Part shown: piece by piece, positions 4,126-36,489 of the stretch | Layout of the letters: every line of letters starts with the position of its first letter | Numbering within the stretch: the first letter of the stretch is position 1 | Assembly (NCBI GenBank): GCA_049584655.1 | Contig: JBAUYF010000001.1 | Span: 7,290 to 71,289, forward strand | Reading direction: 5' to 3' | DNA: 64,000 bases | Origin: Thermoplasmata archaeon | GTDB taxonomy: Archaea > Thermoplasmatota > Thermoplasmata > Lutacidiplasmatales > UBA184 | Made by a program: the position numbers and the translations under genes | The notes under the pieces: generated by a model | Database searches by the model: none | Seen by the model: the letters and a program-made list of their open reading frames with translations, nothing else | Told to the model about the DNA's origin: nothing

Positions 4126-4268
4126 CGGGCCCGGGGGGATGTCCGGAGAGGCTCCGACGCGTGCACGGAGCCTCCCGATCGAACCCCCGACCACCTGGTT
4201 AAAAGCCAGATGCTCTTTCTAGGGTCAACGGCAGAACCGTCCGACCAACCTAGCTGAGCTACGGGCCC
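4126..4268 (-). tRNA. tRNA-Lys(UUU) interrupted by two non-canonical introns (D-loop and T-loop)
   Basis: Hand-folded on the minus strand. Acceptor GGGCCCG/CGGGCCC plus discriminator G. D-stem GCTC...GAGC encloses 40 nt, where about 10 are expected. Anticodon stem TCTGG/CCAGG with loop CTTTTAA. T-stem GGGGG/CCCCC with loop TTCGA-[38 nt]-AT. Both inserts form strong hairpins (GGCTCCG...CGGAGCC in the T-loop insert). Confidence 0.8.
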
Positions 4269-31157: not shown

Positions 31158-32929
31158 CCCCCACTGCGGAGAAACCATCGGTCGAGTCGGGCCCGGGTGA
31201 TCTGAACGCGAATGGGTCGGCCATGCGGACATGCGTAGTTTGCCTCGGGCAGTTCCTCGAGTTGTAGCAGGATCCGCTCCATTTGACGACGTTCGATCGA
31301 ATCACCAGCTCGTACGGCGGCGTGGCAGGCGATCGACGCTGCCCGCCGTTCTTGAATACCATTCGGTACTGAAGGTCGACCGCCGTTGGCGAGTTCGTCC
31401 AAGAGGGCAATCAGTGTCTCGGGAGGCGCCAGATGTCCGTGATGGACGGGCACAGATCGAATGCGATAGGCATCCGCGGCGAACCGGTCCACTTCGTACC
31501 CGGCCTCATCGACCGTCGTCTCCATCTGCTGGAGAAGCTGCGCTTGCCGAGCCGTGAGATGTAGCGTCACCGGGCTGAGCAGCTCCTGACGTGCGAGCCG
31601 CCCATGGGCGAGGATCGAGTCGAACAGGAGACGCTCACTCGCGGCATGTTGATCGATCAGGACGAGCCCTTCCGCCCCTTCTGCGATCCAATACAATCGA
31701 AACAGGACTCCTTGCAAAACGAGCGCAGATTGGGACCCGCGCTGCCGGATCGCGCTGGGCGGCCCCTCGTCAAACAGACGACGTTGGCTCGCGTGTCCGG
31801 AGTCGAATCGGATTGGTAACGGCACGACCGGGTCGTAGGCGGAGAGCGCTCCCAAGTTCCGATGACTGCCGACGGCCTCCGGCGACGGCAACGATTCCGG
31901 AAGCTCCGAGACCATCGGAGTCCCTTGGAGGGCCCGCCGGGCTTCTTGCCGCAGAGCGTCCGCAATCTCGCGTTCCCGCACAATCCGAACCTCGCGCTTT
32001 GTCGGGTGGACGTTGACGTCCAAACGCTCGAGGTCGAGCTCGAGATGCACGACGCCGGTGGGGAAGCGTGTCCGGGGAATGTACCCTTGATAGGCGACCT
32101 TGATCGCCTGGGCCAGGACCCGACTGAACACCGAACGGCCGTTCATCGCAAAGTAAAGGCCCGACGCACTTCCCCGTGCCGCCGCAGGCCGGCCGAGCAC
32201 CCCCCGAACGTAGCCGCTCGTCGGAAGCTCGGCGGCCAACGGAAACGATTGGGCGGGGAAGTCTGCCCCGAACACGTGGGCGCTCGCCTCGAGCAGGGAG
32301 GTGGTGGCCGGGTAGCGGGCGACCACGCGCCCCTCGGCTTCGACCGAAAGCCCTACCTCCGGTCGCGCCAGGTAGAGGCGCTCCACAGTGGAGAGAATCT
32401 CGACCTGCTCGGCCGCTGGCGCATGCATAAACTTCCTCCGGGCGGGTGTGTTGAAAAAGAGGTCGTGCACCCGAACGGTGGTTCCGACTGGATGACCTTC
32501 CACCAGCTCCCTTCCCTCGACGCCGCCGAGCAGCGTGCGCCCGTGGGCGCGATCGGACTCCGGAGGACGAGAGACGAGCTCGAGGCGCGAAATCGCGCCG
32601 ATCGCGGCAAGTGCTTCGCCGCGAAAACCGAGCGTGCCGATTCTATGGATGGGCCCCCCGGGATCCAACTTGCTCGTCGCGTGGCGCTCGAGGGCCAGCC
32701 CCAGTTCGTCCCGCGGAATTCCGGTTCCGTTATCGGTGACCTCAATGCGTGTCAGCCCACCGGTAGTCAGACGGACCCAGATCGAGGTTGCTCCCGCGTC
32801 GACCGCGTTCTCTACCAATTCTTTCACGACGGAGGCCGGTCGCTCGACGACCTCGCCGGCGGCGATGCGTGCCACGAGATCGGGAGCGAGTCGTTGGACG
32901 GGCCGGCGTTCCACGGGCGCGGCGGTCAA
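31154..32929 (-). CDS. mutL: DNA mismatch repair protein MutL (endonuclease-proficient type)
   Basis: GHKL ATPase N-terminus (IAAGEVVERPASVVKELVENAVDAG, DNGTGI). C-terminal endonuclease motifs DQHAASERLLFD and ACPHGRP. The TTG start overlaps the mutS stop. Confidence 0.93.
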   Translation of the reverse strand: MTAAPVERRPVQRLAPDLVARIAAGEVVERPASVVKELVENAVDAGATSIWVRLTTGGLTRIEVTDNGTGIPRDELGLALERHATSKLDPGGPIHRIGTLGFRGEALAAIGAISRLELVSRPPESDRAHGRTLLGGVEGRELVEGHPVGTTVRVHDLFFNTPARRKFMHAPAAEQVEILSTVERLYLARPEVGLSVEAEGRVVARYPATTSLLEASAHVFGADFPAQSFPLAAELPTSGYVRGVLGRPAAARGSASGLYFAMNGRSVFSRVLAQAIKVAYQGYIPRTRFPTGVVHLELDLERLDVNVHPTKREVRIVREREIADALRQEARRALQGTPMVSELPESLPSPEAVGSHRNLGALSAYDPVVPLPIRFDSGHASQRRLFDEGPPSAIRQRGSQSALVLQGVLFRLYWIAEGAEGLVLIDQHAASERLLFDSILAHGRLARQELLSPVTLHLTARQAQLLQQMETTVDEAGYEVDRFAADAYRIRSVPVHHGHLAPPETLIALLDELANGGRPSVPNGIQERRAASIACHAAVRAGDSIERRQMERILLQLEELPEANYACPHGRPIRVQITRARLDRWFLRSGG

Positions 32930-35556
32930 GGTCCCTCCGGCGGGGATTCGGCGCGTGCGCGCTGCTGAAGCTCGTGCAACCGGCGGAGTGCCTCGAGGGG
33001 AGTCAACCGGTCCAGATCGAGCGACCGGATCTCCGCTTCCAGTGCCGAAATCGAGGGAGCGCGGGCGTCCGCGAGGAGGATCGCTTGGGTGTAACGAGTC
33101 GGTCCCCGTGCCTTTCGCTTCGAGTCAGTCACGTTCACTCCGCCTTCCTCCAACCGACGGAGAAGCAGGTCCGCTTCTCGCACGACGGAAGGCGGCATCC
33201 CGGCGAGCCGCGCGACGTGAACGCCGTAGCTACGGTCGGTACTTCCGGGAACCACTTGATGAAGGAACACGATTCCCCCGTCTCGTTCTTCTACGGCCAG
33301 GTGAACGTTGCTCGCACCGCGCAGGTCCTCGATCAACTCCGTCAACGGATGGTAGTGCGTGGCGAGGACGCTGCGGCATTGCACCGTATCGTGTAGATAC
33401 CGAATCGTGGCCCACGCAAGCGCGAGACCGTCGAAAGTACTCGTTCCGCGTCCCACCTCATCCAGCAGGATTAGCGACTTGGGGTCTGCCGCGCGTAAGA
33501 TCTGGGCGACCTCCGACATTTCGACCATGAAACTCGACTTGCCTCGTCCGATCTCGTCGGTGAATCCCATCCGCGTGAACAACGAGGACACCACCCCGAT
33601 GCGTGCGAATTTCGCAGGGACGAACGAGCCTGCTTGGGCGAGGACCACGAGCAGTCCGACCTGTCGCATGAAAGTTGACTTGCCGGACATGTTCGGCCCG
33701 GTCAACACCAAGAGTCGGGCGTCGGCGGCGTCCATCTCGATGTCATTGGGGACGAAGCGTCCGCTCAACATCCGGTCGAGGATCGGGTGGCGTCCCTCTC
33801 GTATCACTAGTGCGGTCGAATCATCCACCGTCGGGCGCACCAGCCGCTGCTCCTGCGCCAATAGCGCGAAAGAGGCCAAGGCATCGACGATCCCGATCGC
33901 GCGCGCGACGCGGTGAATACGCGGGAGCTCCCGTTCGACCTCGGACAGAAACTGTTCCCAAAGTCCGGCTTCGGTCTCTCTCGCCTTCTCGCGCGAAGTC
34001 AAGATTTGGCGCTCGAGTTCACCGAGCCGATCGGAGGTAAACCGTTCCGCTCCAGCGAGGGTCTGCTTCCGACGAAAATCCGAGGGAGCTTTGTCCAGGT
34101 TCGGTCGCGAGATCTCGAAATAATAACCGAAGACCTGGTTGTAACCGATCTTCAGCGTCCGGATCCCGGTCCGCGCCTGCTCCGCGCGTTCAAGCGCCTC
34201 CAACTCGGCGAGCGCCGCGCGTTCCGTCTGCAAGATCTGGTCGAGTTCGGCGGCATGACCGGGCCGGAACAATCCGTGATCCTCGTCGGAGACGGGGAGC
34301 GTGTCGGGTAGCACCGTATTCAGTCGGTCCAAGAAGGACGCCGGCGGCACAGCCTCCTTGGCCAACCGATCGATCCAAGGGGTGGAAGGCCCATGCGTCA
34401 GCATTTCCCCGACGCGATTGGCTTCTCGGAGGCTCTCACGAAGCGTGCCGAGCTCAACGGGGCGAATCCGGCGGCCCGCGAGTCGGGCGCCGATCCGAGA
34501 GATATCGGCGACGCGACCCAAGGTAGTGCGAAGCACGAGGAGGTCGGCGCGGCGCTCGACCAGGGCTTGAACGGCACTCAATCGCTCCTCGATCCGCTCG
34601 ACTTCGGCGAGGGGATTCTGCAACCAAAAACGGAGAGTTCGCCGACCGGGAGCCGTGACGGTAGAATCCCACACATCCAGGAGGGTCGTTCCCTTCGGAT
34701 CGTCTGGGTTCATCGGGCGATTGATCTCGAGGTGGCGCAGCGTCTTCGCATCCAGGAGTTGGCGCTTTCCTAAAAGCCGGGAATCGACCGGCTCGAGGTA
34801 GGGCAAAAGACGCGGCTGGGTCGATCGGACGTAGGCAGCCAAACGCGAGCCGACGGCCGCGAGCGAGGCGGACAACGTCGGTATCGTCGAGAGCGAGATC
34901 GGAAGTTCCTCGACGGGTAGAGGTGCGGGAGCCGGTTCGAGTCGGGCGCGCGGAAATTCCTTGGCCAGCGTTCGCAACAGGCCGCCACCGGAGGATTCAC
35001 CCGATGGGACTGTCACGAGGATCTCACGGGGCTGGAACGGGGCGAGCGCCGTGACAATCCCTTCGACGCCCGTGCTCGCGGCGGTGCCATGAAACCACTC
35101 TCCCGTCGTAACATCGACGACGGCAAATGCACCGGGCGCTTCCGGAAGTATCTCCACGCAGGCGAGAAAATTATGGTCCGGTGTCCCCAGGATCCGGTCC
35201 TCGACGACGGTACCCGGTGTAACCACACGGGTGACCTCGCGCCGTACGAGGCCCTTGGCAAATCGCGCGTCCTCGACTTGATCGCAAAGGGCTACCTTGT
35301 ACCCCTTCCGCACCAGGCGCCCGAGATACGATTCGACTGCGTGGTGCGGAACCCCCGCCATCGGAGTACGTTGCCCCTGGGCGTCGGCCGAGCGCGCGGT
35401 GAGGACGACCTCCAGTTCGCGCGAGAGCAGCTTCGCGTCCTCGCCGAACGTCTCGTAGAAATCGCCCACGCGAAAGAGCACGAGGTGTCCCGGATAGCGG
35501 GCCTTCACCGCCTCGTATTGGTCCAACAGCGGCGTCGACACCGCGGGCGCACTCAT
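32926..35556 (-). CDS. mutS: DNA mismatch repair protein MutS
   Basis: TPLLDQYEAVKARYPGHLVLFRVGDFYETFGEDA, Walker A GPNMSGKSTFMRQ, DEVGRGTSTFDG. I set the start at the ATG at 35556 because the longer frame would run into the tRNA-Ser gene. Confidence 0.95.
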   Translation of the reverse strand: MSAPAVSTPLLDQYEAVKARYPGHLVLFRVGDFYETFGEDAKLLSRELEVVLTARSADAQGQRTPMAGVPHHAVESYLGRLVRKGYKVALCDQVEDARFAKGLVRREVTRVVTPGTVVEDRILGTPDHNFLACVEILPEAPGAFAVVDVTTGEWFHGTAASTGVEGIVTALAPFQPREILVTVPSGESSGGGLLRTLAKEFPRARLEPAPAPLPVEELPISLSTIPTLSASLAAVGSRLAAYVRSTQPRLLPYLEPVDSRLLGKRQLLDAKTLRHLEINRPMNPDDPKGTTLLDVWDSTVTAPGRRTLRFWLQNPLAEVERIEERLSAVQALVERRADLLVLRTTLGRVADISRIGARLAGRRIRPVELGTLRESLREANRVGEMLTHGPSTPWIDRLAKEAVPPASFLDRLNTVLPDTLPVSDEDHGLFRPGHAAELDQILQTERAALAELEALERAEQARTGIRTLKIGYNQVFGYYFEISRPNLDKAPSDFRRKQTLAGAERFTSDRLGELERQILTSREKARETEAGLWEQFLSEVERELPRIHRVARAIGIVDALASFALLAQEQRLVRPTVDDSTALVIREGRHPILDRMLSGRFVPNDIEMDAADARLLVLTGPNMSGKSTFMRQVGLLVVLAQAGSFVPAKFARIGVVSSLFTRMGFTDEIGRGKSSFMVEMSEVAQILRAADPKSLILLDEVGRGTSTFDGLALAWATIRYLHDTVQCRSVLATHYHPLTELIEDLRGASNVHLAVEERDGGIVFLHQVVPGSTDRSYGVHVARLAGMPPSVVREADLLLRRLEEGGVNVTDSKRKARGPTRYTQAILLADARAPSISALEAEIRSLDLDRLTPLEALRRLHELQQRARAESPPEGP

Positions 35557-35617
35557 TGGCCCCGGTGCGAGCGGCGGTCCCGATATAATCCCGCCGATGC
35601 GCCCGGGAATCGGGAGG

Positions 35618-35701
35618 CGCTGAGGGGGAGATTTGAACTCCCGTGGCGAAATCGCCACCAGCTTTCAAGGCTGGCGCCTTGCCGGGCTAGGCTACCTCAG
35701 C
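35618..35701 (-). tRNA. tRNA-Ser(UGA), no intron
   Basis: Minus strand: GCTGAGG-TA-GCCT-AGCCCGGCA-AGGC-G-CCAGC-CTTGAAA-GCTGG-long variable arm (TGGCGATTTCGCCAC)-GGGAG-TTCAAAT-CTCCC-CCTCAGC-G. Confidence 0.9.
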
Positions 35702-35773
35702 AACCCACGCGTCGAACACACCGCTTCGTGGAATAAACTCTCGTTCTGGGCCCGGCCAGCCCCTTCGTCGGAA

Positions 35774-35876
35774 TGCAGGTGCCGGGAGTTCCGCCCGGGC
35801 GACGTCCGTCGCCCGGAGTTTCGAACCCGGGTGGTCAGCTTGGAGGGCTGACATCCTACCACTAGATTACACCTGC
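35774..35876 (-). tRNA. tRNA-Gly(UCC) with a 32-nt T-loop intron and C at position 33
   Basis: Minus strand: GCAGGTG-TA-ATCT-AGTGGTA-GGAT-G-TCAGC-CCTCCAA-GCTGA-CCAC-CCGGG-TTCGA(A)-[about 32 nt forming hairpin CCGGGCG...CGCCCGG]-(C)T-CCCGG-CACCTGC-A. Confidence 0.75.
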
Positions 35877-35916: not shown

Positions 35917-36489
35917 CTAATGCTTTGCCCTCGATTTCGCCGAATGCGCGGCGGAGAGCTCCAGTAACGCGACTCGTTCCAGCACCAACGCTTCCCACGA
36001 AGACTCGGGAACGACGGAGCGATCGGCGGCGTCGATGCCCAGTCGGTCGAGGAGGGTCACATCCGGGGCTCGCGGGTAAGCTGCGGGGTCGGGTTCGAGT
36101 CCGAAGGCTTCGAGGATGGCGCTCGGCTCGCGGGGCTTCTCCATCACCACTACGAATCGTTCGGTTTGGTCCGAGAATCCCACCTTGCCCAGGGCGCGGG
36201 GAAGCTGGTCGTCCCCCGCGACGTAGAGGGCATACTCGGCGCTTCGGTCTCGGAGACGTTCTTCGCCGCGTGCTCGCGCTCGACCCAAATGGGCCCACGC
36301 CGAAAGCAGATGGCGTTCCCCGGCGATCCCGGCTGCATCAAAGAGTGCGACGAGCGACGGATCGGCGGCGTTCAACCGACGGAGCTCCTGGATTAGTTGG
36401 GGAGTCGTTGGAATCCCAGGTTGGGGTCGCCGGGCGCCAATGGCGAGGAGCGAACGCGTCTCGGCGGGAGGAAGCGGTGGAGGTGTCAT
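35917..36489 (-). CDS. cgi121: KEOPS complex subunit Cgi121-like
   Basis: LRRLNAADPSLVALFDAAGIAGERHLLSAWAHLGRA and the C-terminal EALVLERVALLEL resemble archaeal Cgi121 (compare the ...ILNAD... and ...ERVLEKIALIEL pattern). Confidence 0.55.
   Translation of the reverse strand: MTPPPLPPAETRSLLAIGARRPQPGIPTTPQLIQELRRLNAADPSLVALFDAAGIAGERHLLSAWAHLGRARARGEERLRDRSAEYALYVAGDDQLPRALGKVGFSDQTERFVVVMEKPREPSAILEAFGLEPDPAAYPRAPDVTLLDRLGIDAADRSVVPESSWEALVLERVALLELSAAHSAKSRAKH

Follow-up and report, generated by a model that had tools for sequence, protein, structure and literature searches.

Non-canonical introns in archaeal tRNA genes were described by Marck and Grosjean (2003) and Sugahara (2008), and positions 59/60 in the T-loop and 20/21 in the D-loop both stand on the site list published in the review of that work, which names Crenarchaeota (e.g., Thermoproteales), Nanoarchaeota and DPANN archaea as hosts (PMC4090602). 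According to reviews, Euryarchaeota have α4 or α'2 splicing endonucleases (EndA) and only single introns, at 37/38 (PMC4090602); cluster II Euryarchaeota encode only α'2 EndA (PMC5829648), and the α'2 enzyme of Thermoplasma acidophilum is listed as one of narrow specificity (PMC6379350). By the same reviews, only the (αβ)2 and ε2 enzymes, which have specific loops, efficiently remove relaxed or non-canonical introns (PMC4090602, PMC5829648, PMC6379350). We describe here a tRNA-Gly(UCC) gene with an intron at position 59/60 and with C rather than U at position 33, found in a stretch of 64,000 nucleotides (nt) from a Thermoplasmata archaeon (Lutacidiplasmatales; contig JBAUYF010000001.1, positions 7,290 to 71,289), which is referred to below as the window. 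The kind of intron is already known and the lineage is the new part: the full-text literature searched yielded no account of Thermoplasmata with tRNA introns of the non-canonical kind.

Read from 35876 to 35774, the gene consists of the acceptor strand GCAGGTG, TA, the D arm ATCT-AGTGGTA-GGAT, a G, the anticodon arm TCAGC-CCTCCAA-GCTGA, the variable region CCAC, the T-stem strand CCGGG, TTCGAA, an insert of 32 nt, T, the T-stem strand CCCGG, the acceptor strand CACCTGC and a final A, with the insert bounded as TTCGAA/ACTCC...GGAAC/T; CCA is not encoded at the 3' end. Archaeal tRNA-Gly is recognized by the anticodon NCC (C35, C36), the discriminator A73 and a standard cloverleaf, and the gene has all of these, with stems of 7/4/5/5 bp, the anticodon UCC and A73. 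The precursor is nevertheless missed by ARAGORN, with or without its intron option, which finds only tRNA-Ser(UGA) nearby, and by Rfam at the gathering threshold. At a permissive E-value the Rfam tRNA model yields a local match at 35871..35810 with 26.9 bits, against a threshold of 29 bits, in which the first intron bases are taken for the T-stem. With 35819..35788 deleted, 71 nt remain, and ARAGORN then reports them as tRNA-Gly(tcc). An earlier note, made from the letters of the window without database searches, had claimed that a cloverleaf forms only after about 32 nt are taken out of the T-loop, and this is borne out. The spliced T-loop is the consensus UUCGAAU, and the exon junction to be expected is GGUUCGAA/UCCCGG (UUCGAA/UCCCGG).

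The insert has the structure of a bulge-helix-bulge (BHB) intron, so that the T-loop intron seen in the earlier note can now be assigned to this type by its fold and by covariation, and the BHB-compatible structure at the junctions, which the note had proposed as a check, is indeed there. The outer helix h is the T-stem CCGGG/CCCGG (100% paired), the central helix of 4 bp joins the T-loop to the 3' end of the intron, and the inner helix h' within the intron hairpin has 9-10 bp. The 5' bulge A58 A59/A follows U54-G57 and the 3' bulge A C/U60 follows CGGA, both being 3 nt long, and excision restores the cloverleaf. Already the unconstrained minimum free energy (MFE) fold of the whole precursor contains the T-stem, the 4-bp helix and the 3-nt 3' bulge. 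Archaeal splicing endonuclease cuts two nt into each bulge. Together with the BHB geometry this would therefore give an intron of 32 nt at position 59/60. The earlier note had considered the exact splice point to be ambiguous owing to a repeated AACTCC at the two junctions; that doubt falls away, since the BHB geometry sets the site. The repeat has a period of 30 nt and would leave a 9-nt loop; it is present only in the window and in the nearest relative, L042, and is missing from 83 of 85 relatives. An insertion of a mobile element with AACTCC as its target-site duplication was considered and rejected because the junction repeat is not conserved.

The conservation of the gene was followed in one genome per species. 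A scan with the exact D arm and the C33 anticodon loop gave 72 genomes, all of them labelled as Thermoplasmata or Thermoplasmatales metagenome-assembled genomes (MAGs) and coming from soils and peat. A second scan, with the same D arm, a base other than C at position 33 and the anticodon UCC, also matched many DPANN and other archaea and added about 19 high-GC Thermoplasmata MAGs. The intron is at 59/60 in all 72 species genomes with C33 and in the approximately 19 with U33 (about 90 species), which is every complete gene of a clade of high-GC soil and peat Thermoplasmata that includes the Lutacidiplasmatales. Indeed, the AcS and SubAcS MAGs among the matches of both scans belong to the Lutacidiplasmatales (terrestrial miscellaneous euryarchaeotal group, TMEG) of Sheridan et al., who do not mention introns (PMC9287336).

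These genomes contain 68 unique C33 sequences and 18 U33 orthologues, every one of which has the 59/60 intron. In the C33 sequences it is 28-34 nt long (mode 30), with the 5' bulge AA/N and the 3' bulge NN/U, and the central helix is paired at 4/4 positions in 59 of the 68. A strict BHB is returned by MFE folding alone for 50 of 85 sequences. Covariation was evaluated on a sequence-only MAFFT alignment of the 86 distinct sequences, with 500 column shuffles and slid pairing partners as controls. In the structure made up of cloverleaf and BHB, 95.7% of the cells are paired, as compared with 89.1% in the shuffles (reached by 0 of 500) and 33-46% with slid partners, and double changes are seen at 13 pairs. 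In the intron hairpin all nine aligned pairs have changed on both sides, with 84.9% of the cells paired. The intron sequence varies across the clade and the exons are almost invariant, the rare changes in exon stems (6:67, 27:43, 28:42) being compensatory. Upstream of the gene, CAAAGCATTAAC-like boxes are the sole A/T-rich element at -53..-40 in 89 distinct regions that are GC-rich and variable; from its resemblance to the archaeal transcription factor B recognition element (BRE) and TATA box, this box is inferred to be a promoter.

From these findings we consider it about 90% probable that the locus is a working tRNA-Gly gene whose BHB intron occupies one of the known non-canonical sites. Transcription from a promoter of the gene's own would give a precursor of 103 nt, in which the 3' end of the intron, CGGA, would pair with U54-G57 of the T-loop and form the BHB motif together with the T-stem outside and the intron hairpin inside. 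EndA would then cut two nt into each bulge, directly 3' of A59 and directly 5' of U60, and an RtcB-type ligase would join the exons to a 71-nt tRNA with the T-loop UUCGAAU. It should be noted that several points weigh against this reading. The lowest-energy fold of the window's own isolated T arm has a 4-nt rather than a 3-nt 5' bulge (AAAC, -29.8 kcal/mol), the strict 3-nt/3-nt form (-28.7 kcal/mol) being only 1.1 kcal/mol above it, and in this isolated fragment the pairing probability of the central helix is only about 0.5-0.56. In nine of the 68 unique C33 sequences, all with A57, the central helix contains a mismatch, either A.G or A.C; compensation of A57 is seen in one sequence (UUCA:UGAA). 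Another copy of tRNA-Gly(UCC), which the earlier note had advised to look for, was sought with the same T arm and acceptor: no intron-less one was found in the intron-bearing assemblies among the matches listed, and these matches make a second, intron-less gene improbable rather than impossible. The endonuclease was traced in one member of the clade and not in the window's own genome. Lastly, what could be seen directly comprises the sequence, fold, covariation, conservation, distribution among taxa and the α'2 EndA gene of one clade member; that the gene is transcribed, that its RNA is cut and the exons joined, and which base the RNA has at position 33 are deductions from these. The coordinates of all features are given in Table 1.

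Table 1. Features of the tRNA-Gly(UCC) locus and of the other tRNA genes considered in the window
Feature	Position	Strand	Description or basis
tRNA-Gly(UCC) gene, whole	35774..35876	-	103 nt precursor, 71 nt spliced, discriminator A73
Exon 1 (tRNA positions 1-59)	35820..35876	-	acceptor 5' strand, D arm, anticodon arm, variable region, T-stem 5' strand, T-loop U54-A59
C33	35845	-	base 5' of anticodon; loop CCUCCAA
Anticodon UCC	35842..35844	-	sequence reading and ARAGORN on spliced form
Intron, 32 nt, position 59/60	35788..35819	-	ACTCCGGGCGACGGACGTCGCCCGGGCGGAAC
Central BHB helix, 5' strand U54 U55 C56 G57	35822..35825	-	MFE fold; 97.4% paired over 86 sequences
Central BHB helix, 3' strand CGGA (intron nt 27-30)	35790..35793	-	MFE fold, family tabulation, covariation
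Inner intron hairpin, helix h'	35794..35817	-	U:G and CCGGGCGAC/GUCGCCCGG around loop GGAC (MFE fold)
Exon 2	35774..35787	-	U60, T-stem 3' strand CCCGG, acceptor 3' strand CACCTGC, A73
Promoter-like box CAAAGCATTAG, BRE/TATA-like	35917..35927	-	41-51 nt upstream of mature 5' end
tRNA-Ser(UGA), intron-less	35616..35701	-	72 nt downstream of tRNA-Gly (ARAGORN, Rfam)
tRNA-Lys(UUU), two introns	4126..4268	-	143-nt precursor; missed by ARAGORN and Rfam
tRNA-Lys D-loop intron, 31 nt, position 20/21	4247..4217	-	BHB geometry and covariation
tRNA-Lys T-loop intron, 38 nt, position 59/60	4177..4140	-	BHB geometry

The same T arm and acceptor without an insert in the T-loop was found in at least 120 genomes, of Methanomassiliicoccales, DHVE2/Aciduliprofundum, Thermoplasmatales and other Thermoplasmatota. 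The matches listed are all tRNA-Gly(UCC), and none of them has a T-loop intron; a canonical 37/38 intron of approximately 13-42 nt is present in about 36 of the 120 matches listed (L144-L263: Methanomassiliicoccales and unnamed Thermoplasmata). Introns have thus entered this one gene at different sites in different lineages, at 37/38 in some and at 59/60 in the clade. Its phyletic distribution marks the 59/60 intron as a derived trait that the members of one high-GC clade share, and it would have been gained once, in the ancestor of this clade, and then have been inherited vertically. Two divergent forms occur outside the high-GC clade. The tRNA-Gly(UCC) of Thermoplasmatota FK_Sedi_A_Bin.118 (L094, JAMCUS010000019.1, GC 0.33) has a 37/38 intron and in addition a 14-nt mini-intron at 59/60, TTCAAA/TGGTATTCTGAAAA/T, which is almost without an inner helix, and the C33 tRNA-Gly(UCC) of Thermoplasmatales archaeon Yes46-08 (L038, JASEEW010000011.1, ~5802, minus strand) has an insert of about 230 nt at 59/60, TTCAAA/CGGTAGTAGC...CCACCCTGGAAT/TCCCGG, with the central helix UUCA:UGGA. 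DPANN and unclassified archaeal tRNAs (L093, L109, L128, L137, L126, L372) have inserts in the T arm, the variable region or the D-loop, some of them combined with a canonical intron, which belongs to the known spread outside the Thermoplasmata. In each of two MAGs there is a pair of intron-bearing tRNA-Gly(UCC) genes that differ from one another and lie on separate contigs (JOPF257, L026 and L044; SMAG_U12189, L058 and L066), which could be due to gene duplication or to mixed strains in the bin.

The window contains a second tRNA gene with an intron at exactly the same site, tRNA-Lys(UUU), which is overlooked entirely even by Rfam at a permissive threshold. Its T-loop intron has the central helix UUCG:CGGA, the bulges AU/C and CA/U and an inner helix of 11 bp. 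Its D-loop intron has the central helix CUAG:CUAG and the bulges GU/U and AA/A, with A14 and G15 remaining without partners across from the 3' bulge, and upon excision gives the consensus D-loop AGCUAGGUA. ARAGORN proved too permissive when D-loop deletions were offered to it, and the splice site was instead taken from the BHB geometry and from covariation, the central helix of the D-loop intron occurring as CUAG:CUAG, GUAG:CUGC, GCAG:CUGC and CCCG:CGGG. Both tRNA-Lys introns are present in at least 17 further distinct Thermoplasmata MAG sequences, and 4 of these MAGs also gave tRNA-Gly loci; the scan with YGRRNNTCCCCCCGGGCCCG was unspecific, with chance matches in GC-rich bacteria, and all counts for tRNA-Lys are lower bounds. 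When 0.7 Mb of clade loci was searched by regular expression for other T-loop introns, nearly all matches were false positives within coding DNA, and besides the Gly genes only the tRNA-Lys of the window was convincing.

The earlier note was right that the introns of tRNA-Gly and tRNA-Lys share the insertion site and that their sequences differ. It took this pattern as what would be produced by intron gain through transposition to homologous positions, and among the alternatives a recent copying of the intron between the two genes is the one that survives best, although it is still improbable. Both genes have the intron exactly at 59/60 with the same central helix UUCG:CGGA, and for Thermoproteales large-scale transposition has been inferred from near-identical introns (PMC4090602). 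When the BHB-constrained ends are removed, however, the Gly and Lys T-loop introns of one genome resemble each other no more than shuffled sequences do (z -0.98 to -0.11 in 5 genomes). The reason for the shared CGGA end is that it must pair with the conserved UUCG of the T-loop. Judged by their distribution (about 90 species for Gly and at least 18 distinct sequences for Lys), the two introns are old and vertically inherited; both are fixed across the clade, so that any transfer would be ancient and untraceable now. A recent transposition is thus unsupported by the sequences; an ancient one may have taken place.

The C at position 33, which the earlier note had pointed out in place of the near-universal U, is indeed encoded. 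U33 is conserved in elongator tRNAs, exceptions being the eukaryotic initiator tRNA-Met with C33 and Candida tRNA-Ser(CAG) with G33 (PMC5041475), and a precedent for C33 in an archaeal elongator is tRNA-Cys(GCA) of Sulfolobales (PMC7668247). The tRNA-Gly gene thus departs from the general rule for elongators and not from the definition of tRNA-Gly. Within the clade position 33 is C in 68 and U in 18 of the 86 distinct sequences; A or G was found in none, though the scan for bases other than C allowed both. In the outgroup it is U in 118 of the 120 genes listed, and the two with C33, in lower-GC Thermoplasmata MAGs (L163, JBMFNP010000012.1; L208, JAOAJK010000005.1), are intron-less tRNA-Gly(UCC) genes. 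The origin of C33 is therefore not confined to the intron-bearing clade, and from the outgroup pattern U33 is ancestral and C33 independent of the intron. A coupling of C33 to the intron was considered and rejected, since there are genes with U33 that have the intron and genes with C33 that lack it; a compensating change in the exons was likewise looked for, and no other exon position tracks C33. Sequences with U33 are often closest to ones with C33, which indicates that the base changed several times. For example, L133 and L012 are 98% identical and yet differ in having U33 and C33, respectively, and L089 is nearer to L030 (C33) than to any U33 sequence.

This alternation is read most simply as tolerance of either pyrimidine at position 33 in the tRNA-Gly of the clade, and most likely the mature tRNA-Gly would carry C33 and still decode GGN codons. 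The other possibility is that C33 is absent from the mature tRNA because of C-to-U editing, or that it marks a specialised, non-standard role in decoding. The rarity of exceptions to U33 among elongators and the free alternation of C and U in close relatives, as a correcting activity would allow, could both be taken to favour it. Editing of C to U in archaeal tRNA is also known at another position, by CDAT8 in Methanopyrus. The tolerance of any pyrimidine is simpler, however, the scan that allowed A and G brought up neither, no other exon position changes with C33, and Sulfolobales tRNA-Cys shows that C33 can occur in an archaeal elongator (PMC7668247); we therefore rate editing or a special role as unlikely, and a shade more so than a recent transposition. 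As an exception to a near-universal rule, C33 is real, recurrent and so far unexplained.

The earlier note had named a decaying pseudogene, with an intact gene elsewhere, against its own reading. That the locus is such a pseudogene, or a tRNA-like remnant disrupted by a T-loop insertion with AACTCC as target-site duplication, is a possibility to which the failure of standard tRNA finders, the unusual C33 and the 6-nt direct repeat around the insert could be held to point. It is highly improbable and can be dismissed in view of the invariant exons, compensatory stem changes and structured intron of 86 distinct orthologues, the conserved promoter-like box, the lack of the repeat in 83 of the 85 relatives and the absence, among the matches listed, of any intron-less copy from the roughly 90 assemblies.

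For the working gene the question arises which endonuclease would process its transcript. A first profile search with EndA listed mostly Archaeoglobi and Methanococci, and tblastn of the Methanocaldococcus jannaschii EndA against the window and the clade tRNA loci gave no useful match. A clade enzyme was reached from M. jannaschii EndA (verified against PDB 1A79) by a profile search to a Thermoplasmatales homologue, followed by an exhaustive representative search, a filter for the amino-acid composition of GC-rich genomes, the cluster members and a look-up of their contigs. The protein found, P0276 (354 aa), is encoded on DASWZL010000047.1 of MAG SMAG_U3737, whose contig DASWZL010000029.1 bears an intron-containing tRNA-Gly (L016). 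The protein is built of two repeats, each N-terminal plus catalytic, as in the α'2 architecture; its C-terminal repeat keeps the Tyr, His and Lys of the active site, and it is colinear with the EndA of Archaeoglobus fulgidus. There is no insertion at the site where the Crenarchaea-specific loop (CSL) is grafted in PDB 3P1Y (YGSRVGDRLELSLLE as compared with YGSEKGDLVTLSLIE in A. fulgidus), and the stretch from the catalytic Tyr to the catalytic His (FRAYPRNPEHSH) is free of the additional residues that the ARMAN enzyme has there. What distinguishes EndA of broad specificity, a heterotetrameric or three-unit build or a specific loop with a conserved Lys, is thus lacking in P0276, which represents one clade member; further EndA paralogues may exist. 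Strict-BHB introns of the T-loop should, by their geometry, be cleavable by a loop-less α'2 enzyme at any position; it is less evident that the tRNA-Lys intron in the D-loop, with A14 and G15 unpaired, would be a substrate. The EndA neighbourhood is conserved in the clade (L384-L398), with CarS-like, phosphoribosyltransferase-like and EndA genes followed by convergent chorismate synthase and 5-enolpyruvylshikimate-3-phosphate (EPSP) synthase genes, and the EndA protein cluster is abundant, being represented on dozens of soil metagenome contigs.

The neighbouring tRNA-Ser(UGA) was described in the earlier note as intron-less and 72 nt away, which is correct. In the spacer between the two tRNA genes (35702-35773) tRNA-Ser has a box of its own, TTTATT / GGTTTATTC, about 30 nt upstream, and the adjacent genes for tRNA-Gly and tRNA-Ser appear to have separate promoters. 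Directly downstream of tRNA-Ser lies a MutS gene (32926-35658, minus strand). Its longest open reading frame (910 aa) would overlap tRNA-Ser; on the Logan contig that matches, the gene is called with 876 aa, and the true start is probably further in. The window sequence is matched by Logan assemblies of environmental runs.

Taken together, these findings permit a more far-reaching proposal, which we make tentatively and hold to be rather doubtful as a whole: an abundant soil Thermoplasmata lineage, including the Lutacidiplasmatales, may have fixed introns at 59/60 (tRNA-Gly(UCC) and tRNA-Lys(UUU)) and at 20/21 (tRNA-Lys(UUU)) while having only a loop-less α'2 EndA of the narrow type, and the U-turn base of an elongator tRNA-Gly may be freely C or U. 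If true, either α'2 enzymes handle more than has been assumed or the clade has broadened the specificity by an undescribed route. With about 90 species, a loop-less α'2 EndA and conserved T-loop and D-loop introns, the clade would argue that the enzyme type does not limit the position of an intron as long as its BHB is strict, and it offers a concrete pair of substrate and enzyme by which the claimed limits of EndA specificity can be considered. The C/U tRNA-Gly would likewise be a natural test of how far U33 is needed in decoding, and the polymorphism over dozens of species lends itself to comparing what the U-turn nucleotide does. Of more practical importance is that annotation with ARAGORN or with Rfam at curated thresholds would make genomes of the clade seem to be without two essential tRNAs, tRNA-Gly(UCC) and tRNA-Lys(UUU), and missed tRNAs can distort inferences on completeness and codon usage for this widespread group of soil archaea.

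It remains to compare the gene with the systems already described. Like the initiator tRNA-Met, Candida tRNA-Ser and Sulfolobales tRNA-Cys, the tRNA-Gly has its non-U base at position 33 encoded in the genome and conserved in a clade. It differs from them in being a Gly-UCC tRNA of a different phylum and in that C33 and U33 alternate in close relatives, neither being fixed. With the canonical 37/38 intron the T-loop intron has in common that it lies in an arm with a 5-bp stem and a 7-nt loop, T arm and anticodon arm being of the same geometry, that it follows the sixth nucleotide of the loop and that the first four loop nucleotides pair in the same register with the 3' end of the intron. The difference is in the site: with the T-loop interrupted, the elbow between T-loop and D-loop would not be formed before splicing, and standard finders miss the gene. 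As in the transposed introns of Thermoproteales, equivalent positions are occupied in different tRNAs of one genome, whereas the near-identical intron sequences reported there (Fujishima et al., 2010, cited from PMC4090602) are absent here. The known non-canonical introns are the closest relatives: they, too, have 3-nt bulges around a 4-bp helix, are short and variable in sequence, would be expected to be processed by EndA and RtcB and can occur several to a tRNA, as in tRNA-Lys(UUU) of the window. Unlike these, the intron of tRNA-Gly(UCC) resides in Thermoplasmata and, instead of being patchy, is fixed and vertically inherited over some 90 species.

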